Shown here: piece after piece, positions 1-10,274 of the stretch
How positions within the stretch are numbered: the first letter of the stretch is position 1
How the letters are laid out: each line of letters opens with the position of its first letter
UHGV virus genome: UHGV-0050635
Direction: 5' to 3' (one strand)
Source of the DNA: a virus
Length of the DNA stretch: 10,490 nt
Translations under genes and position numbers: made by a program
Notes under the pieces: model-generated
The model's database searches: none
Told to the model about the DNA's origin: nothing
The model's input: the letters and a program-made list of their open reading frames with translations, nothing else

Positions 1-611
1 TTTTCAAGGATCGAAACTTCTGGGTTTTCGTCATATTTATTGTGGGGACGTGGTCTTTCTATAACATTTTTGATCAACAACTTTTTCCTGTCTTTTATGC
101 AGGTTTATTCGAATCACACGATGTAGGAACGCGCCTGTATGGTTATCTCAACTCATTCCAGGTGGTACTCGAAGCGCTGTGCATGGCGATTATTCCTTTC
201 TTTGTGAATCGGGTAGGGCCAAAAAATGCATTACTTATCGGAGTTGTGATTATGGCGTTGCGTATCCTTTCCTGCGCGCTGTTCGTTAACCCCTGGATTA
301 TTTCATTAGTGAAGTTGTTACATGCCATTGAGGTTCCACTTTGTGTCATATCCGTCTTCAAATACAGCGTGGCAAACTTTGATAAGCGCCTGTCGTCGAC
401 GATCTTTCTGATTGGTTTTCAAATTGCCAGTTCGCTTGGGATTGTGCTGCTTTCAACGCCGACTGGGATACTCTTTGACCACGCAGGCTACCAGACAGTT
501 TTCTTCGCAATTTCGGGTATTGTCTGCCTGATGTTGCTATTTGGCATTTTCTTCTTGAGTAAAAAACGCGAGCAAATAGTTATGGAAACGCCTGTACCTT
601 CAGCAATATAG
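1..611 (+). CDS. MFS transporter, LacY/oligosaccharide:H+ symporter family, C-terminal fragment (5' end lies outside the window; frame is open from nt 3, stop TAG 609-611)
   Basis: Reading frame is open from the window edge to 611. Translation aligns by eye with the LacY C-terminal half (GTR.YGY...NR.G.KNALL...KYS/ITS.F..R.S.TI.L motifs) and contains multiple hydrophobic helices. Probable host flank gene. Confidence 0.8.
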   Translation, partial: FKDRNFWVFVIFIVGTWSFYNIFDQQLFPVFYAGLFESHDVGTRLYGYLNSFQVVLEALCMAIIPFFVNRVGPKNALLIGVVIMALRILSCALFVNPWIISLVKLLHAIEVPLCVISVFKYSVANFDKRLSSTIFLIGFQIASSLGIVLLSTPTGILFDHAGYQTVFFAISGIVCLMLLFGIFFLSKKREQIVMETPVPSAI

Positions 612-1140: not shown

Positions 1141-1341
1141 TTACCCATTGGCGCGGCTTAAGAGCTTATTTTTGAATTCACAATGGTCACGATATAACCA
1201 TCTTGCTCGTCCGTGGATAACTTTGGCTTTTGGCAGGTCGCCGGACTTAATCCGGTCGTAGATGAAGGTTTTACCGAAGCCAGTATCGGCCATGATGAAT
1301 TTCAAATCAACCAGTGAATCAGGCTGTAGTTCGTGTTGCAT
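1141..1341 (-). CDS. AlpA/Xis-family small DNA-binding protein (putative excisionase or prophage regulatory protein)
   Basis: 66-aa ORF with ATG at 1341 and a GGAGA motif 8 nt upstream. The translation LVDLKFIMADTGFGKTFIYDRIKSGDLPKAKVIHGRARW matches the AlpA/phage-excisionase HTH signature (TG.S.STIY ... G.FP.P.K.G.RA..W). Confidence 0.7.
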   Translation of the reverse strand: MQHELQPDSLVDLKFIMADTGFGKTFIYDRIKSGDLPKAKVIHGRARWLYRDHCEFKNKLLSRANG

Positions 1342-2526: not shown

Positions 2527-3198
2527 TCACCCATCTTGCTGCGGTGCTACTATTGAAAAGTGCTCACACCCTTTAGCCCAAATAGTTTTGATAGTTGTCC
2601 AACTGACTGGAACCTTGATTTCGATTCTCCCGCTACAGTCACAAGTTTCGCAATCATCATCACCAAAGCATTCCGGGCAGCTTATAAACGTAGTTTCTGA
2701 AAATTCACCGGATAGCACACCCTTAGCGCCGTTCTCGGCTGTTAGTCTCTTCGGCACCATGACCCAACCATCCGGAATTACCGGAGAGTTGCCGGGTTCT
2801 TTAATGTGCAAGCGAGGCTCACCATCTTTTGGCTCAGGCCACTGGCGCTCCATGTTGATCTTCAATTTATCTTCCATAGCAGCGGTAATTTCAGCATCGC
2901 TGATGCCAGCACGGCGCTGTGAATCCCACAACAGAAACTGCATATCAGCCCACTCGCTAAGATCGTCTGGTTCGGCTGCGGCTTCCAGTGCCTCTTTTGA
3001 GAGGTGTTTCAGTGGACCAATGGGGCCAACGCAGCCAAATGTGGAGTCAGACCATTTGGCATGCTCGTGGCGAATCTGTTCGCGTTCCAGTGATGCCAGT
3101 GCAATTCGTGCCAGTTCCATTTGTTCGCCACGAGTAAGCCCGTTTTCAAGCGGATTTTTAATGAATAATTCGATACGTTCTTTGGTAATAGTGGTCAT
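2527..3198 (-). CDS. Putative MazG-like (all-alpha) dNTP/NTP pyrophosphohydrolase domain protein with a Cys-rich C-terminal domain (223 aa)
   Basis: ATG at 3198 with AAGGTGA upstream. The N-terminal region (EQMELARIALASLEREQIRHEHAKWSDSTFG ... DMQFLLWDSQRRAGISDAEITAAMEDKL) resembles the phage dATP/dGTP pyrophosphohydrolase/MazG-like fold. The C-terminus carries CPECFGDDDCETCDC. Family assignment is from recalled motifs, not a search. Confidence 0.5.
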   Translation of the reverse strand: MTTITKERIELFIKNPLENGLTRGEQMELARIALASLEREQIRHEHAKWSDSTFGCVGPIGPLKHLSKEALEAAAEPDDLSEWADMQFLLWDSQRRAGISDAEITAAMEDKLKINMERQWPEPKDGEPRLHIKEPGNSPVIPDGWVMVPKRLTAENGAKGVLSGEFSETTFISCPECFGDDDCETCDCSGRIEIKVPVSWTTIKTIWAKGCEHFSIVAPQQDG

Positions 3199-3200
3199 AG

Positions 3201-3392
3201 CTATTTCACCTTAATCTCAACATTTCGCAGCTTTAGCTCTACTGGCAGGTCTGACTTTCCTGTTAATGCTAATGCGAGATTTTCTGGGGTAATGAGAGCA
3301 GTTATTGCTTTCCCCATTGCCAGACGAATAATTATTCGTATTTCGCGATCGTCACATGCTCCTGGTCGAACGATTGATATTTGTCCGTCCAT
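3201..3392 (-). CDS. Hypothetical small protein (63 aa, MDGQISIVRPGACDDREIRIIIRLAMGK...)
   Basis: ATG at 3392 preceded by AAGGAG at 6-nt spacing. Its start lies 1 nt after the stop of the upstream gene. The longer track ORF (to 3434) begins with TTG and lacks an RBS. Confidence 0.55.
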   Translation of the reverse strand: MDGQISIVRPGACDDREIRIIIRLAMGKAITALITPENLALALTGKSDLPVELKLRNVEIKVK

Positions 3393-3393
3393 C

Positions 3394-3822
3394 TCACTCT
3401 CCTTTGATGCGAATGCCAGCGGCGCGGGAATCATTCCATCGCTTTACTTCTTCACGAATTACGTCAATGCATTCTTTCGAATCCATTAGGTAATCTTCAT
3501 CAAAAAGACGTTCCTGTTCGTTTTCTATCGCAACAATGATTGCTTCAACTAACTTTTGTGCCTGAGAACCACTTTCTAACTCTGCAATGCGCTTCTCTGC
3601 GGCTTCCAGCTCATCCAGCAGCGCCCGAACTACATCAGCGGTTTTCTGGCACTGGTCAACAATGCTAACGTCACAACCAGTATCGAAACCGTCCTCAGTT
3701 TCAAAGCGGGTCTCTACAGAGTCGCCGTCGATATCAGATGGTTCGAACCCGGCAATGTTTTCCAGAATGCCGATTATGCTTTCTGCGCTATGACGTAATG
3801 CGCGTTTATCGATGTTGCTCAT
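3394..3822 (-). CDS. Hypothetical acidic coiled-coil protein (142 aa)
   Basis: ATG at 3822 with AAGGAG 7 nt upstream. ATGA start/stop overlap with the upstream gene indicates translational coupling. Confidence 0.75.
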   Translation of the reverse strand: MSNIDKRALRHSAESIIGILENIAGFEPSDIDGDSVETRFETEDGFDTGCDVSIVDQCQKTADVVRALLDELEAAEKRIAELESGSQAQKLVEAIIVAIENEQERLFDEDYLMDSKECIDVIREEVKRWNDSRAAGIRIKGE

Positions 3823-4250
3823 GACCGCACTCCTTTGCGAAGCTGGGAAGCAAATTCACGGATAGTGTCATCAAGGTCTGGACACAACAGATTGTCAGCA
3901 AACATCTCTACCCCCTGCGCCCGTACTTCAGCCAGGAAAGCGTCGGTGGCTGGGGTGTCTGATTGCAGAGACTTTGCGCGATAGTCATTCCACCCTCTTG
4001 CATACATGGGATTAACTTGCACTCCATCTTTTACGCAATATGCCTGCCCTCCACGGTTGATAACCTCGATTTCGTCCATAGCGCCAGACTTCAGCCCCGC
4101 ATTCTCCGCTGCCAGCGCCGCGCACTTGGCCTCCGCTTCAGCAAATTTACGCACCAGATATTCAGCGTTTGTTTCGTTAACCTTTAAATCTCGTGGGATG
4201 CATTTACCTTTCAGAAATCCATCCATCTCAATTAGTGACATTTGTTTCAT
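3819..4250 (-). CDS. Hypothetical protein (143 aa)
   Basis: ATG at 4250. ATGA overlap with the stop of the upstream small gene. Part of the coupled leftward operon. Confidence 0.75.
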
Positions 4251-4411
4251 TTCTTCCCACTCCGCAACATCGCATTCAGATATTTGTTTTGATTCACTGA
4301 TGGAAAAGAATTTCTCTTAAGCAATTCCTCTCTCGATGGCATTGGCTTTACGCGTTGGCGAATAATCATTTCTGCCGGAAGAATGCCGGGATTGTATGCA
4401 AGTCCTCTCAT
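4247..4411 (-). CDS. Hypothetical small protein (54 aa from ATG 4411; alternative in-frame starts at 4429 and 4444)
   Basis: GAGGAA lies 6 nt upstream of ATG 4411. The longer track ORF (to 4561) overlaps the neighbouring gene by 140 bp and is unlikely in full. The stop overlaps the next start (ATGA). Confidence 0.45.
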
Positions 4412-4421
4412 GGTAAATTCC

Positions 4422-4715
4422 TCAGTCATTACTGATAGCGCCATAGCGTGAGCGGTAATTACGCAGGCGCGGGTCAATTTCAGGGAAGTGGGTATATGTG
4501 GCTTTGCGGAATGGTCGGATTGATGTCTGGTAAATTCGCTCGCGTTCTTCTTTCTCTGCAAGCCATATACAATGGCGAAATTCCTTTTCCTCTTTCGTTT
4601 CCTGCGGTAGCGACATTATCCGGTCGTAGTTTTTCCTGAATTTATCCAGCACCTCCGATACGGAATTGCCGGAACAGCGGCGCGGGTCATCCGCACCATA
4701 CTGAGGCGCTGGCAT
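4422..4715 (-). CDS. Hypothetical protein (97 aa)
   Basis: ATG at 4715 with AGGAGAA 5 nt upstream, 14 nt downstream of the ssb stop. Confidence 0.7.
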
Positions 4716-4728
4716 GATTTTCTCCTGA

Positions 4729-5235
4729 TTAAATTGCGTGAATAGCGTGACGAGGGAAGGGGAGAGTTACTGGTGCAAAGGGTATATCGTCGTCAAAATC
4801 CATCGGAGGTTCGTTGTGTTGTGCTGGTGATGATTGCCGCTGTGGCTTCTGTGATTGCCTGCTGGCTGCTTGTTGTTTGCTGTCGCCAATGCCGCCAAGC
4901 ATTTGCATCACGCCATTAATTCCGACATGAACCTCGGTTGTGTAACGGTCTTGCCCTGACTGGTCTTTCCACTTTCTGGTTCTCAGCATTCCCTCGAAAT
5001 AAATCTGATCACCTTTTTTCACATACTGCCCCACGACCTCAGCCAGTTTCCCGGATACAGCAACACGATGCCATTCAGTCAATTCCTTTTGCTCGCCAGT
5101 ATTTTTATCTAGCCATTGTTCTGACGTGGCTATTGTCAGGTTAGCGAACGCTGTTCCTGATGGTGAGTATCGAACTTCCGGGTCTTGTCCTACCCGACCA
5201 AGGATAATCACCTTATTTACGCCTCTGCTTGCCAT
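4729..5235 (-). CDS. ssb: Single-stranded DNA-binding protein (phage-encoded SSB) with an unusual 15-aa C-terminal extension beyond the DDDIPF tip
   Basis: Translation [23 protein letters not shown]...TEWHRV...GQDRYTTEV...[11 protein letters not shown] is collinear with E. coli SSB (OB fold, Gly/Gln-rich linker, acidic tip). Here the reading frame continues [15 protein letters not shown] before the stop at 4729-4731. Confidence 0.9.
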
Positions 5236-5943
5236 TTATGCCGCCTGTTTTAGTTCGTTAACTCTGATGTTCATTACCTGAACGCATTTAGCCTGCGCCT
5301 CCTCGTTGCCAGCCATTAATTGCCAGTCACGCTGATAACGCTCGATGAGTTTTTTCTTGTCAGTTTCTGTTGACGCATAATCGCTGAAGTCTTTCAGGAT
5401 TTGTTCGCAGTCAACCGATGGAGATTTCTGGTTGGTATTTTCTGGTGATGGTTTGTTATCTGATGCTGGGATTGCCCATCCCGGCAGTGATGGAGGGAGC
5501 CAGTAAAATCCTGTTCCATCCTTCAGTTTTGCCCTGTGCCACCCCTGCTTTTTATCGAGAGATGTTTGTGCGAAACCTTCCTCAAGGTTATACAGATACC
5601 GACCGATTCCCCACTGAACGGCAGCGCGCTTCATTGCACCGGAACGACCGCCTTTGACGGCTTCTACCTGCGTGTTTTCAGCAGCATCCCATTTGGTTAC
5701 CCATTCGGAATCAATCTTGATTGATATGCCGCATTCAACTCCGCCGTTGTTGGGAATATCGCGGTATTCATTGCGCCATCCTGCTTTGCCGCAAACATCG
5801 TCCAGGCGCTTCATGATTGCCCGGTTCGTGACATAAGCCAGCACCATAGCCCACACCTTGCCATCGCGTGTTTTACCGCTTTGCTGTATTCGCCATTCGA
5901 TATCTTCAGGGCTGAATGGCTCATCGAATTTGTTCAAATCCAT
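5236..5943 (-). CDS. Rad52/Sak-like single-strand annealing protein (phage recombinase), 235 aa
   Basis: ATG at 5943 with GAGGTGA upstream. Motifs KAGWRNEY ... GGVECGISI ... GGRSGAMKRAAVQWGIGRYLYN resemble the Rad52/22-family SSAP core. The stop abuts the ssb start (TAAATG). Confidence 0.7.
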   Translation of the reverse strand: MDLNKFDEPFSPEDIEWRIQQSGKTRDGKVWAMVLAYVTNRAIMKRLDDVCGKAGWRNEYRDIPNNGGVECGISIKIDSEWVTKWDAAENTQVEAVKGGRSGAMKRAAVQWGIGRYLYNLEEGFAQTSLDKKQGWHRAKLKDGTGFYWLPPSLPGWAIPASDNKPSPENTNQKSPSVDCEQILKDFSDYASTETDKKKLIERYQRDWQLMAGNEEAQAKCVQVMNIRVNELKQAA

Positions 5944-6042: not shown

Positions 6043-6201
6043 TTATGGCGATACCAGAGAGCTTTCTGCGTGTACATGCGTCTCTGTAACTTGCTCTCCT
6101 TCACTGTGGTTGCAAGTGACATGAATATCTCCTTCGTTACCGATTAATTCTTTCATCTGACGAATGAATTCTTCGTCTGACCAGTTATCCGTAAAACTCA
6201 T
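6043..6201 (-). CDS. Hypothetical small protein (52 aa) in the position lambda kil occupies (immediately after and overlapping cIII)
   Basis: ATG at 6201 overlaps the TGA of the cIII-like gene (ATGA). Assignment is by position only; no sequence similarity to Kil is claimed. Confidence 0.45.
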   Translation of the reverse strand: MSFTDNWSDEEFIRQMKELIGNEGDIHVTCNHSEGEQVTETHVHAESSLVSP

Positions 6202-6592: not shown

Positions 6593-7216
6593 CTATGCGG
6601 CCTCGGAAGGAAGTCCAATCATCTTATTCAAATCTTCTACCCGTAAAGCAGGAAGTGCTGTACTTGCTTTATCTGCTTCTTTTGGTAGCAATTCTTTGCT
6701 TTCAGGCCAAACCTCAATAAGTCGCTTAACTGTTGTGACTGAGTTCAAAGCAGCCCATACATTTGATTCGATATCCTTTTTCTTGGCTTCAAGTTTTTGT
6801 TGCAATGCGCAGATTTCATCAAACCTTTTTGTTATTTCGTGTTCTGCGCTAAACATGCATTTATCTTTTATCGGAGTAGGGAGAAATATATCTTCGCCGT
6901 TGCCGTCTTTCCCATATGAATGCCATCCAACCCTTCTGCCAGATACAGTCAGATAAATTGAAGTAGAACGAAAATCGTATGAGTAAAATGAACATCCCAT
7001 CTTTCCAAGTTCTTCACTTATAGCTACCAACTTGGATGATAACTGATCCACTTCCTCAGTTTTCTTTTTACCGCCAAACGCAATAACTCTGGCGTCAAGT
7101 GCAAGCTGGTTCTTTAACTTTGTTACTTCTTCAAGCTCAGTGAAAACCCCAGACTTAATTAAAGCGTTACGAGCGATTTCCTCTTTCATTCTCGTAGTTA
7201 AGCGGATTGATGACAT
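6593..7216 (-). CDS. Hypothetical protein (207 aa) in the accessory hotspot between cIII and ral
   Basis: ATG at 7216 with GAGGA 6 nt upstream (the track ORF starts at an upstream TTG). No predicted transmembrane character and no recognisable family. A hairpin overlaps the stop codon (6585-6602). Confidence 0.7.
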   Translation of the reverse strand: MSSIRLTTRMKEEIARNALIKSGVFTELEEVTKLKNQLALDARVIAFGGKKKTEEVDQLSSKLVAISEELGKMGCSFYSYDFRSTSIYLTVSGRRVGWHSYGKDGNGEDIFLPTPIKDKCMFSAEHEITKRFDEICALQQKLEAKKKDIESNVWAALNSVTTVKRLIEVWPESKELLPKEADKASTALPALRVEDLNKMIGLPSEAA

Positions 7217-7252
7217 ATTAATTCCTCTCAAATAAGAAAATAAAGGCCACCA

Positions 7253-8325: not shown

Positions 8326-8631
8326 TCAATAAGCACCGTACGGTAGTTTACTGTACAATTTTATTTTTTGGACTGCATGTATTTTGTTTCCTAATGGGTT
8401 TGAATCTTTGTAATAAATACTTCTATTTTTTCGAACGACTTCTTCTTTCTTCTTGCAGCAAAGGATTCCTAGTGATGCTGCTTTGTCTGCTTTGACGCAA
8501 CCAGAGAGCTTTAGCGCAATTTTTCGCGCCAGTGCTTCATTACTGCGTCGCTCGGCAATAAGTTCTGCTCTGCGAGCTTTGTAGCGGCTTTTTGCCGTAC
8601 CTTTGGATTCTTTCCAGACAATGGTTACCAT
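8326..8631 (-). CDS. N: N-like transcription antiterminator, phage-21-type arginine-rich motif (101 aa)
   Basis: ATG at 8631 with AAGGAG 6 nt upstream. The N-terminal GTAKSRYKARRAELIAERR is the phage 21 N ARM as I recall it. The C-terminal region resembles N-family tails. A cognate nutL lies upstream. Confidence 0.8.
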   Translation of the reverse strand: MVTIVWKESKGTAKSRYKARRAELIAERRSNEALARKIALKLSGCVKADKAASLGILCCKKKEEVVRKNRSIYYKDSNPLGNKIHAVQKIKLYSKLPYGAY

Positions 8632-8741
8632 GATGGTCTCCTTTAAGTGGCTTTGGCGCATGACGCGTCGAGGTGCTTATCTTCTCGATCGCTGTCTTGC
8701 AGCTGCAATTCGCGCCATCCCCAAAACCACTCAAGTTCTGG

Positions 8742-8920: not shown

Positions 8921-8948
8921 GAAATAAAAAAGGGGCGAAAGCCCCTTA
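8921..8948 (-). terminator. Rho-independent terminator of the repressor transcript (- strand)
   Basis: On the - strand, stem aggggc-tttc-gcccct is followed by TTTTTTATTTCC. It overlaps the c2 stop codon. Confidence 0.7.
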
Positions 8949-9596
8949 AGGAAGGTTTGCTAGCTTGGCATCAACGACAACGCCAATGATTTTACAGTTC
9001 CCATTGATTTCAATCATTGGGTATTGTGGATTGAGTGGTTTCAGGAATTTTCTACCGGCATCAATAACTAACTTTTTGAATGTCGCCTCGTTTTCTCCTT
9101 CAAGTTTGGCGACTACCAACTTTCCATTACGTGGTTCGACTTCTGGGTCGACGAGAATAATCATCCCCTCAGGAATACTCAGTCCTGCCGGGGCAGTCAT
9201 TGAATCGCCTTTAACGTCGAGCCAAAAAGAGTCTTCAGAACAATCTACCGTTGTGTCGTACCAGTTATCTATTGCACGCCTATGATATGGCTCTACAGCT
9301 TCCATCCAACATCCTGCGCTTACCCAACTAATTAGAGGATACGAACCTCTTGGATCATGCCTGCTGTGATAGGCAATGTTTGAAAGACTATCCTCTCCTT
9401 TCAACAGGTAATCAGGGGAGCACTGCAAAGCCTTGGCTAAGGCCAATAGGTTTTCGCCATTGGGCTCAGTTTCAGATCGCTCCCATTGGGAAATAGCAAC
9501 ATTAGACACGCCAACCATCTTGCCAAGGGCAGCCTGCCTAATCTTGAGTTCTTTTCTGCGAGCGCGAATACGCTCACCCATCAGTTGTGTATTCAT
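8946..9596 (-). CDS. c2: Phage repressor, P22 C2 type (LexA/S24-like autocleaving repressor with N-terminal HTH), 216 aa
   Basis: Translation MNTQLMGERIRARRKELKIRQAALGKMVGVSNVAISQWERSETEPNG...IIGVVVDAKLANLP is nearly identical to my recollection of P22 C2. P22-type operators flank it on both sides. Confidence 0.9.
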   Translation of the reverse strand: MNTQLMGERIRARRKELKIRQAALGKMVGVSNVAISQWERSETEPNGENLLALAKALQCSPDYLLKGEDSLSNIAYHSRHDPRGSYPLISWVSAGCWMEAVEPYHRRAIDNWYDTTVDCSEDSFWLDVKGDSMTAPAGLSIPEGMIILVDPEVEPRNGKLVVAKLEGENEATFKKLVIDAGRKFLKPLNPQYPMIEINGNCKIIGVVVDAKLANLP

Positions 9597-9676: not shown

Positions 9677-9862
9677 ATGTACAAAAAAGATGTTATTGAC
9701 CACTTCGGAACCCAGCGTGCTGTTGCTAAAGCACTAGGCATTAGCGATGCAGCAGTCTCTCAGTGGAAAGAAGTTATCCCAGAGAAAGACGCCTATCGAT
9801 TGGAAATCGTTACAGCTGGCGCCCTGAAGTATCAAGAAAGTGCTTACCGCCAAGCGGCATAA
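9677..9862 (+). CDS. cro: Cro repressor, P22 type (61 aa)
   Basis: Translation MYKKDVIDHFGTQRAVAKALGISDAAVSQWKEVIPEKDAYRLEIVTAGALKYQ... matches recalled P22 Cro. GGAG RBS upstream. Confidence 0.9.
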   Translation: MYKKDVIDHFGTQRAVAKALGISDAAVSQWKEVIPEKDAYRLEIVTAGALKYQESAYRQAA

Positions 9863-9959: not shown

Positions 9960-10000
9960 ATATAGGAAAATTAACAAATGGCACAAGCAAGCTACAGCAA
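9960..10000 (-). promoter_or_regulatory. Candidate pRE (cII/C1-activated establishment promoter): TTGC-N6-TTGC on the - strand (forward 9987-10000)
   Basis: The - strand reads TTGCTGTAGCTTGC overlapping the 5' end of c1, the classical arrangement of the cII binding site at pRE. Confidence 0.5.
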
Positions 10001-10274
10001 GCCAACACAGCGAGAAATTGATCGCGCTGAAACTGATTTACTCATCAACCTGTCAACGCTTACCCATCGCGGTCTGGCAAAGATGATTGGCTGTCATGAA
10101 TCGAAGATAAGCAGAACGGACTGGAGATTTATTGCTTCGGTCTTGTGTGCTTTCGGAATGGCATCAGACATCAGTCCGATTAGCAGGGCTTTTAAGTATG
10201 CGCTTGATGAAATCACAAAGAAAAAATCCCCGGCCGCCACCGAGGATTTTAAGCAAATTGATATGCAATTCTGA
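9978..10274 (+). CDS. c1: cII-like transcriptional activator (P22 C1 type), 98 aa
   Basis: HTH region plus C-terminus [18 protein letters not shown] paralleling lambda cII (..KKRPAATERSEQIQMEF). Position after cro and nutR. Confidence 0.85.

Follow-up and report, generated by a model that had tools for sequence, protein, structure and literature searches.

A probable PL-operon tail of abc2 and four mosaic ea genes in a lambdoid prophage of E. coli

The five small genes at positions 3201–4715 of UHGV virus genome UHGV-0050635 (10,490 nucleotides, hereafter the window) most probably form the tail of a PL operon, in which abc2 is followed by four mosaic ea genes; we put the probability of this reading at about 0.8. 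The five would be neighbours in a hotspot of recombination and counter-defence genes rather than the parts of one machine. We propose that the block lies promoter-distal within the early-left (PL) operon of an E. coli prophage of the HK75/HK620/P22 lambdoid type, and that recombination at conserved gene-boundary sequences may shuffle the region. As an accessory region it is a classic lambdoid mosaic rather than a new module, and nothing in it is new in kind, with near-identical annotated relatives for every gene.

Gene content and layout of the block

The block and its neighbours comprise the following features; the five block genes are numbered from abc2 onwards.

4422..4715, minus strand: gene 1, abc2, anti-RecBCD protein 2, 97 aa (Pfam PF11043, PHROG 656, identity to P22 Abc2)
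4247..4411, minus strand: gene 2, DUF2737 small basic protein, 54 aa, pI 11 (Pfam PF10930)
3819..4250, minus strand: gene 3, EaE/hkaH/Oad2-family protein, 143 aa, pI 5.09 (PHROG 614, BLASTP to HK446 gp27)
3394..3822, minus strand: gene 4, Ead/Ea22-like protein, short form, 142 aa, pI 4.34 (Pfam PF13935)
3201..3392, minus strand: gene 5, hkaF-type small protein, 63 aa (HK620 hkaF, PHROG 1222)
3391..3420, minus strand: junction island, the gene 4 C-terminal codons AAGIRIKGE containing the gene 5 ribosome-binding site AAGGAG (at least 80% DNA identity)
2527..3198, minus strand: DUF550 / dATP-dGTP pyrophosphohydrolase-domain protein with an EaA-like N-terminus (Pfam PF04447, E 7e-42)
5235..4729, minus strand: SSB, immediately upstream of abc2 (Pfam PF00436, E 8e-36)
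5943..5236, minus strand: Rad52-family (Erf-like) single-strand annealing protein, SSAP (Pfam PF04098, E 5e-26)
6046..6201, minus strand: HK75/HK446 Gp33 homologue (tblastn)

The five consecutive ORFs described in a first-pass annotation of this DNA are real genes, each with many conserved homologues, and the good ribosome-binding sites ascribed to them are present, every ATG start being preceded by a strong Shine–Dalgarno sequence (AGGAG, GAGGA, GGAG or AAGGAG). The same annotation had the genes linked throughout by ATGA or 1-nt junctions. This is correct for three junctions, two ATGA overlaps (-4 nt each) and a +1 nt spacing, and fails for the first, at which abc2 and DUF2737 are separated by 10 nt. 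Genes 3 and 4 both contain AAGGAG within their C-terminal codons. Because the last codons of one gene thus supply the ribosome-binding site for its successor, translation may be coupled from each gene to the next along the block. For gene 5, the 63-aa start appears better supported than the alternative 77-aa ORF, because AAGGAG lies seven nt upstream of it and the annotated length of HK620 hkaF is 63 aa.

Equally tight packing continues on both flanks, with gaps of 0 nt between the SSAP gene and ssb, 13 nt between ssb and abc2, and 2 nt between gene 5 and the DUF550 gene. The unbroken string is therefore one of eight genes, running from 5943 to 2527 with successive gaps of 0, 13, 10, -4, -4, 1 and 2 nt, and the boundary drawn around five of them is arbitrary. 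A promoter and terminator scan found no promoter-like or minus-strand terminator-like site between 6100 and 2400, and a single message would carry the block together with the upstream recombination genes. None of the five proteins matched an NCBIfam family, and PADLOC returned a defence-system match neither for these nor for the neighbouring genes. At Rfam gathering thresholds there was no RNA family in the window, nor were there any tRNAs.

Family assignments of the five genes and their neighbours

The view that no family could be recognised in the block has to be abandoned, since all five proteins fall into known ones (PF11043, PF10930, EaE/hkaH, PF13935 and hkaF). The first-pass annotation had itself named homology to lambdoid ea proteins as what would speak against its reading, and such homology is what was found.

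Gene 1 matches Pfam PF11043, Anti-RecBCD_p2, over its whole length (1–97 of 97, E 4.9e-63, 209.8 bits against a cut-off of 25), and PHROG 656, ‘abc2 anti-RecBCD’. It is 93% identical to P22 Abc2, 96% to HK620 hkaJ and 97% to the Abc2 proteins of HK75 and HK446. Abc2 is a characterized hijacker of RecBCD whose structure on the enzyme has been solved, and Pro68 of the P22 protein is the proposed occupant of the PpiB active site (PMC9836394). Against PDB 8b1t chain A gene 1 scores E 1.7e-57, with Pro68 and the motif IRPFRK both kept. It shares with P22 Abc2 (PDB 8b1t/8b1u) its 97-aa length and its site downstream of a phage annealing-protein gene, and differs from it by seven substitutions, with just L5Q and L32R inside the ordered, RecC-bound part. 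Gene 1 is thus Abc2, and we infer its RecC binding and RecBCD modification from the P22 protein at 93% identity.

Within the PL operon, gene 1 follows directly on the phage recombination genes (SSAP–ssb–abc2), and the order is the same in P22, HK620, ES18, HK75 and HK446. The immediate surroundings differ from those in P22: Abc2 there has a partner, Abc1, whereas the window has an SSB gene in place of abc1, and the annealing protein is of the Rad52-family, Erf-like HK75 type rather than P22 Erf. The SSAP is 99.6% identical to HK75 gp32 and the SSB 98.8% to HK75 gp31, while the Gp33 homologue, over 52 of 56 residues by tblastn, is 92% identical to HK75 gp33 and 88% to HK446 gp33. Together with Abc2 at 97%, these make up the HK75-type locus studied in an unreviewed preprint on the P2 OLD nuclease, in which Gp33 of HK75/HK446 is reported as an OLD trigger (bioRxiv 10.64898/2026.07.10.737580). 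On the other side of the block, the DUF550 protein aligns with the N-terminal portion of P22 EaA at 62% identity.

Gene 2 matches Pfam PF10930 over 1–53 of 53 positions (E 3.4e-32, 110.5 bits, cut-off 25) and is the equivalent of P22 orf56 (77% identity), HK620 hkaI (98%) and HK97 gp38; like gene 5, it encodes a small basic protein. All 63 residues of gene 5 are the same as in HK620 hkaF, and the protein matches PHROG 1222 (E 1.9e-39). Its homologues form 84 protein clusters, all from Enterobacteriaceae or phage and all labelled ‘hypothetical’.

Gene 4 appears to be a short coiled-coil protein of the Ead/Ea22 family. It matches Pfam PF13935, Ead_Ea22, with 37.6 bits (cut-off 27, E 4e-9), an identical NCBI protein is named ead/Ea22-like, and it shares with the family the N-terminus, the pivot ALLDELEAAEKRIAELE and the tail AAGIRIKGE. 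A comparison of its family profile with lambda Ea22 gave an hhalign probability of 99.7%. Significant BLASTP alignment of gene 4 itself to lambda Ea22 was limited to the last 8 residues. Common to gene 4, lambda Ea22 and P22 EaD are an N-terminal MS.I..QALR, the coiled-coil pivot LLDE.E..KRIA.LE and the tail AGIRIKGE. Gene 4 is shorter (142 aa against 182 for Ea22 and 197 for EaD), with a much shorter putative coiled coil. Lambda Ea22 biases development toward lysogeny, and its C-terminal alpha/beta dimer domain has been solved (PMC10834534); by BLASTP to Ea22 and by PDB sequence match this domain is absent from gene 4, whose C-terminal module is instead predicted to be all-helical.

PDB sequence searches with genes 2–5 gave a best E of only 0.46. 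AlphaFold2 models of genes 3 and 4, built on alignments of 34 and 30 homologues respectively, were of low confidence (pLDDT 53 for gene 3 and 63 for the whole of gene 4, with gene 4 helices at 54–84 and 87–105 reaching ∼65). A Foldseek comparison of the gene 4 model with the PDB, the kind of structure search proposed earlier as a route to remote homologues, returned nothing below E 0.25, and the weaker matches are regarded as meaningless. Of the description of genes 3 and 4 as two acidic coiled-coil proteins, the acidity holds for both; a significant heptad signal was present only in gene 4, over three heptads at residues 63–85, a level reached in a crude test by 4 of 300 shuffles. Gene 3 has a predicted 27-residue helix and gave no significant heptad signal in the same kind of crude shuffle test. 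The idea that the two are acidic coiled-coil DNA mimics like gp5.9 was set aside, acidity being the sole evidence for it and gene 3 having no significant heptads.

Mosaicism of the block in related loci

The order of the block is known from other phages. HK620 hkaJ–hkaI–hkaH–hkaG–hkaF and ES18 genes 46–40 have the same five families in the same order and with the same junctions, HK75 is syntenic as well, P22 reads abc2–orf56–eaE–...–eaD–eaI, and HK446 reads gp33–erf–gp31–abc2–gp29–gp28–gp27. The outer genes of HK620 are nearly those of the block (hkaF identical, hkaI 98%, hkaJ 96%), whereas its middle genes are other mosaic variants, hkaH (160 aa) being 45% identical to gene 3 and hkaG (238 aa) alignable to gene 4 in the tail region only.

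We compared the block with 80 viral IMG/VR loci carrying an Abc2 at least 97% identical. Sequence of abc2 and DUF2737 is common to 76–80 of these, and DUF2737 directly follows abc2 in 79, so that the two genes are almost inseparable. For gene 3, 53 loci have its 5′ third and 2–7 its variable stretches; at 80% or more identity and coverage the gene is present in three. Gene 4 sequence occurs in 2–4 loci apart from islands shared by 17–20 and by 41, and any match to the gene in eight; gene 5 occurs in 10, and genes 3–5 appear in varying combinations. With DNA identity of at least 80%, ∼41 of the 80 loci have the junction island; the gene 4 sequence flanking it is found in 2–8.

Against eight near-identical loci, mosaic breakpoints were found at 4718 (the abc2 start), at 3388/3389 (the gene 4/5 junction, as in loci L093 and L096), at 6201 and at 1388; recombination breakpoints coincide with gene boundaries. 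Other E. coli prophages carry the exact block as well, at 98.9–99.97% identity. The stretch from abc2 to gene 4 is ∼99% or more identical in all eight places with the exact gene 4 protein, and these places differ in the recombination modules upstream, the genes downstream and the site of integration. Because they were chosen on gene 4 and are recent copies, they are of little use for judging long-term linkage. Conservation of the block as a unit, which the first-pass annotation had taken as a measure of its module, is thus seen in these other E. coli prophages and is lost over the 80 loci, where only DUF2737 stays with abc2.

The near-invariant pair of abc2 and DUF2737 might be a functional couple. 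The narrower idea that DUF2737 is a partner specific to Abc2 was weakened on two counts: the gene also lies beside gam-type loci (HK97 gp38, according to the HK620 annotation), and its core (residues 23–54) is also found in virulent Jerseyvirus and Kagunavirus phages, the Jerseyviruses carrying DUF2737 without Abc2.

Gene 3, counter-defence and alternative readings

Gene 3 belongs to the family of EaE, hkaH and HK97 gp37. It has no Pfam match, but it matches PHROG 614 (E 1.5e-52) and is 44% identical to HK446 gp27, Oad2 (BLASTP, E 3e-38), 45% to HK620 hkaH, 47% to HK75 gp28 and 39% to P22 EaE (E 7e-10). It occupies the slot straight after abc2 and DUF2737, as in HK446, HK75, HK620, ES18 and P22. 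P2 OLD, an abortive-infection nuclease, is a tRNase fired by phage tampering with RecBCD; according to the July 2026 unreviewed preprint, Oad2 binds and directly blocks it, and was enough alone to inhibit OLD in a library screen (bioRxiv 10.64898/2026.07.10.737580). Oad1 is an unrelated vibriophage inhibitor. The first 36 residues of gene 3 are ∼92% identical to Oad2, both proteins have an EAKC..LAAENAG.K helix, a 14-residue motif and a QLRKG tail, and both operons carry a Gp33-type gene. Gene 3 differs in lacking a 21-residue helix segment of Oad2, and the central and C-terminal modules of the two are unrelated. Of 5426 complete E. coli genomes, 141 (∼2.6%) carry the central module of gene 3 (3960–4085, residues ∼57–97).

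An anti-defence role for gene 3 is plausible on this homology and synteny, and gene 3 would then be a counter-defence protein of the Oad2 kind, with P2 OLD itself not assumed as its target. According to the preprint, the HK75 homologue, at 54% identity to Oad2, has no inhibitory effect on OLD (bioRxiv 10.64898/2026.07.10.737580), and membership of the EaE/Oad2 family is therefore a poor predictor of activity; at 44%, gene 3 is more distant still, too distant to expect the same target. Since P22 Abc2 does not trigger P2 OLD (PMC12445682), the linkage of abc2 and eaE is also not simply that of a trigger and its antidote. The divergent central module may instead set which immune sensor is blocked. 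Tentatively, and against the odds in our estimate, gene 3 could be an Oad2-type inhibitor of new specificity, with its central module aimed at another RecBCD-guarding sensor (an OLD-family or a Gabija- or PARIS-like ATPase-nuclease, or a retron). Of the host takeover or anti-defence suggested in the first-pass annotation, the former thus holds for Abc2 as a RecBCD hijacker and the latter gains from the relation of gene 3 to Oad2; neither draws on the acidic coiled-coil argument on which the suggestion had been based.

A case for a single dedicated functional module, in which the five proteins would assemble co-translationally into a complex, could be made from the ATGA overlaps and 1-nt spacing, from the intact recurrence of the exact block across several different prophage backbones, and from fusions of genes 3 and 4, which are matched in one protein by PHROG families 14548 and 368 and mentioned as Oad2 fused to EaD/Ea22 in the unreviewed preprint (bioRxiv 10.64898/2026.07.10.737580). 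We nevertheless consider it improbable. Only DUF2737 travels with Abc2 (79 of 80 loci), while genes 3, 4 and 5, in 3, 8 and 10 loci, assort independently; the flanking ssb and DUF550 genes are coupled just as tightly; the eight near-identical places are recent copies picked via gene 4; and Oad2 needed no partner to inhibit OLD in the screen. Another reading, which we regard as possible but unlikely, makes genes 3–5 modulators of the lysis–lysogeny choice of the lambda exo–xis type, acting via host stress or replication pathways and not in counter-defence. The block lies at the equivalent position between recombination genes and xis, gene 4 belongs to Pfam Ead_Ea22, and Ea22 of lambda and Stx phages is reported to favour lysogeny and the exo–xis region to affect lysogenization and induction (PMC7093339, PMC3824215, PMC10834534). 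However, gene 4 shares with lambda Ea22 just the termini and the coiled-coil pivot, without its solved C-terminal domain, OLD inhibition is the sole experimental datum for the gene 3 family, and DUF2737 is also carried by virulent phages, which make no lysogeny decision. The two roles, lysogeny modulation and counter-defence, are not mutually exclusive.

The P22 ea genes are non-essential in the laboratory, and conservation in the block is concentrated at gene ends and in short internal islands, as would be expected if genes 2–5 had no function of their own and were filler whose conserved ends act as recombination linkers. We find this highly improbable, because the ORFs stay open and in frame over thousands of homologues (7842 matches for gene 3 and 1700 for gene 4) and one family member, Oad2, has a demonstrated activity. 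Moreover, the helix insertions in relatives of gene 3 measure 21 or 28 residues, that is whole heptads, which argues for selection on the protein.

We return to the PL-operon tail of abc2 and mosaic ea genes as the preferred reading. Its architecture was already described two decades ago for P22, HK620 and ES18, and one counter-defence family with experimental support, Oad2/EaE, can now be placed directly downstream of abc2. The window is useful as a pointer, combining a gene 3 variant of that family with an HK75-type locus that includes the reported OLD trigger. If gene 3 does have a new specificity, the EaE family would be a modular, fast-swapping library of inhibitors.

A gene string in the left arm of a lambdoid prophage

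The window covers the left arm of an E. coli lambdoid prophage, with these features.

42..611, fragment of a host LacY-like MFS transporter gene
1141..1341, torI/xis
3198..2527, minus strand, DUF550 gene, 2 nt downstream of gene 5
3392..3201, minus strand, gene 5, hkaF-type, 63 aa
3822..3394, minus strand, gene 4, Ead/Ea22-like, 142 aa
4250..3819, minus strand, gene 3, EaE/hkaH/Oad2 family, 143 aa
4411..4247, minus strand, gene 2, DUF2737, 54 aa
4715..4422, minus strand, gene 1, abc2, 97 aa
5235..4729, minus strand, ssb, 13 nt from abc2
5943..5236, minus strand, Rad52-family annealing protein gene, joining ssb (gap 0 nt)
6201..6046, minus strand, Gp33 homologue, 52 aa
7253..7453, ral (leftward operon)
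8326..8661, N-like gene (leftward operon)
8946..9596, cI (immunity region)
9677..9862, cro (immunity region)
9978..10274, cII (immunity region)

The first-pass annotation had taken genes 1–5 for a tightly coupled module. Reading of the minus strand confirmed its five consecutive ORFs. Each starts with ATG behind a good Shine-Dalgarno site, which for genes 3 and 4 (AAGGAG) lies within the final codons of the preceding gene, and the gaps at successive junctions from gene 1 to gene 5 are +10 nt, −4 (ATGA), −4 (ATGA) and +1 nt. Such tight packing is not peculiar to these genes, as it extends to the annealing protein gene, ssb and the DUF550 gene; a consensus scan from 6100 to 2400 revealed neither a promoter-like site nor a minus-strand terminator-like site. 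Because the flanking gaps are equally short and no such site interrupts the region, genes 1–5 are one stretch of a longer string of eight genes, not a delimited unit.

The left end of the prophage (1053–1388) has torI/xis and no integrase gene, a layout shared with HK620 and KplE1, in which attP separates int from xis. Elsewhere, near-identical prophages change at 1388 to a lambda-type Exc and integrase adjoining torS, and the integration module has therefore been swapped. The gene immediately downstream of ral, itself an anti-restriction gene, is on the minus strand (6593–7231); its 212-aa product contains a full-length Nmad5 domain (nucleotide modification associated domain 5, PF18757, E 3e-71) and may be a further accessory for counter-defence or DNA modification. 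The DUF550 protein (dATP/dGTP pyrophosphohydrolase domain) resembles EaA at its N-terminus and is rich in Cys over a C-terminal stretch, CPECFGDDDCETCDCSGRIE; its gene is itself mosaic, other loci having just short islands in common with it.

Families of genes 1, 2, 4 and 5

The first-pass annotation recognised a family for none of the five genes, wrongly, as all belong to described ones (PF11043, DUF2737, PHROG 614/EaE, Ead_Ea22 and hkaF). The order abc2, DUF2737, EaE-like, Ead-like, small gene, EaA/DUF550-like is that of P22, HK620 and ES18. With every gene in a described family and an arrangement that published phage genomes also show, the block is of a known kind.

Gene 1 is Abc2, with a full-length match to PF11043 (E 5e-63) and 93% identity to P22 Abc2 and 96–97% to the HK620, HK75 and HK446 proteins; against PDB 8b1t (E 2e-57), Pro68 is conserved. 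P22 Abc2 does not inhibit RecBCD; Abc2 is proposed to enable phage recombinase loading on the ssDNA product of RecBCD, and host PpiB is proposed to act on Pro68 (PMC9836394). Given the identity to P22 Abc2 and the presence of only two substitutions within the ordered RecC-bound part, gene 1 would be expected to act in the same way, its presumed partners being the HK75-type annealing protein and SSB encoded just upstream. P22 Abc2 does not trigger P2 OLD, an abortive-infection nuclease (PMC12445682).

Gene 2 (DUF2737, E 3e-32) is the counterpart of P22 orf56, HK620 hkaI and HK97 gp38, and gene 5 and HK620 hkaF are 100% identical. The DUF2737 core (residues 23–54) is also present in virulent siphoviruses, namely the Salmonella phage SETP3 (locus L086, 2441–2596) and many Jerseyvirus and Kagunavirus records, where its neighbours are nin-like small genes (NinH- and NinZ-like) and Abc2 is not close by. 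Its presence in these virulent genomes speaks against a role tied to lysogeny or to Abc2.

Gene 4 exceeds the Pfam Ead_Ea22 threshold (37.6 bits vs 27), and an identical protein at NCBI is already called ead/Ea22-like. Lambda Ea22, which favours lysogeny, is tetrameric: a short N-terminal part is followed by a long coiled coil and, at the C-terminus, a dimer domain (PMC10834534). Gene 4 resembles it in its N-terminal motif, pivot sequence and tail (AGIRIKGE), but is without its C-terminal domain; in the family alignment, modules recombine freely between these fixed points. The pivot of gene 4 is a putative coiled coil, with a three-heptad signal at residues 63–85 by a crude test (higher than in 296 of 300 shuffles). 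A low-confidence AlphaFold2 model (pLDDT 63) consists of one helix, a beta-hairpin and three further helices, and Foldseek against the PDB gave nothing significant; for this protein the models support ‘largely helical with a short coiled coil’ and nothing beyond. Its role may be developmental or anti-defence. The C-terminal module (3430–3570) is present in 301 of the 5426 complete E. coli genomes, and plasmids account for 136 of its 319 places. Two of the listed plasmids have ∼110 kb and an ead/Ea22-like annotation; these plasmids may be phage-plasmids.

Gene 3 and the reported OLD inhibitor Oad2

Gene 3 has no Pfam family and matches PHROG 614 (E 1.5e-52), with identities of 45% to HK620 hkaH, 47% to HK75 gp28, 44% to HK446 gp27 (E 3e-38) and 39% to P22 EaE. 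According to a July 2026 preprint, P2 OLD is a tRNase that switches on once RecBCD is compromised and is triggered by Gp33 of HK75 and HK446; Oad2 (HK446 gp27, described there as a relative of P22 EaE) binds OLD and prevents it from becoming active, and the HK75 homologue, with 54% identity to Oad2, fails to inhibit it (bioRxiv 10.64898/2026.07.10.737580).

The GenBank record of HK446 has the order abc2, gp29, the DUF2737 gene gp28 and then gp27, in the position of gene 3. The first 36 residues of gene 3 and Oad2 are ∼92% identical, and the EAKC..LAAENAG.K helix, a further motif and the QLRKG tail are common to both; gene 3 nevertheless lacks 21 residues of helix, and the central and C-terminal modules are unrelated. 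The Gp33 homologue, beginning MSFTDNWSDEEF, is 88–92% identical over 52 residues to HK446 and HK75 Gp33, and the window's Erf-like, SSB and Abc2 proteins show 97–99.6% identity to their HK75 counterparts. Together, the homology and shared position with Oad2, the Gp33 homologue and the HK75-like proteins suggest that gene 3 may be a counter-defence protein of the Oad2 kind, a tentative reading to which we give a probability of about 0.4; we do not claim P2 OLD itself as the target. As for the earlier proposal of host takeover or anti-defence, it is right in the case of Abc2 and plausible in that of gene 3, for the latter on grounds other than those originally given.

The final residues of the Gp33 homologue are unlike both HK446 and HK75 Gp33. 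Among length variants of the EaE/Oad2-family helix, the differences are of exactly 21 or 28 residues (three or four heptads). The name ‘HNH endonuclease’ that databases give to some of the 171-aa variants was probably transferred from EaE–HNH fusions. The AlphaFold2 model of gene 3, of low confidence (pLDDT 53), has a long helix (26–52), a small beta-sheet (61–79) and C-terminal helices.

Conservation and shuffling of the block

We took 80 IMG/VR loci whose encoded Abc2 is at least 97% identical to that of the window and scored them against every window protein and against the window DNA. DUF2737 follows abc2 in 79. A gene 3 relative comes next in 54, only three of them at ≥ 80% identity over ≥ 80% length; gene 4 is detectable in eight loci and gene 5 in 10. 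The DNA profile is equally uneven: abc2 and DUF2737 are common to 76–80 loci and the first third of gene 3 to 53, the variable stretches of gene 3 (4080–3961 and 3900–3841) to 2–7 and the island between them (3960–3901) to ∼40. Most of gene 4 is common to 2–4 loci, with islands at the coiled-coil pivot (17–20 loci) and the gene 4/5 junction (41 loci). Only the abc2–DUF2737 pair is therefore near-constant; genes 3–5 vary, and a five-gene module is not supported. About 15 loci (for example L017, L018, L020 and L045) have an extra ∼287-nt gene (Sf6 gene 24-like, 96 aa) between abc2 and DUF2737, as with ES18 gene 45 and HK446 gp29; the window is without it.

Some part of the block is matched by 2279 of 5426 complete E. 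coli genomes, but ≥ 80% of it by only one; the central module of gene 3 is found in 141. An exact copy of the gene 4 protein is encoded on 24 contigs. Eight of its places were examined, and in each of them abc2, the 143-aa gene and the 142-aa gene are identically spaced at 98.9–99.97% DNA identity; DUF2737 is called as a gene in only three, although the alignment with window DNA runs through it in every one. The surroundings differ: ERF and gp31 replace Rad52 and SSB, DUF551 replaces DUF550, and a lambda-type integrase lies at torS or other attachment sites, with breakpoints exactly at gene boundaries (4718, 3388/3389, 6201 and 1388). From this identical spacing within differing surroundings, we conclude that the exact combination is a recent, mobile cassette, and that over longer times the region shuffles module by module, in the textbook mosaic pattern of classical lambdoid phages.
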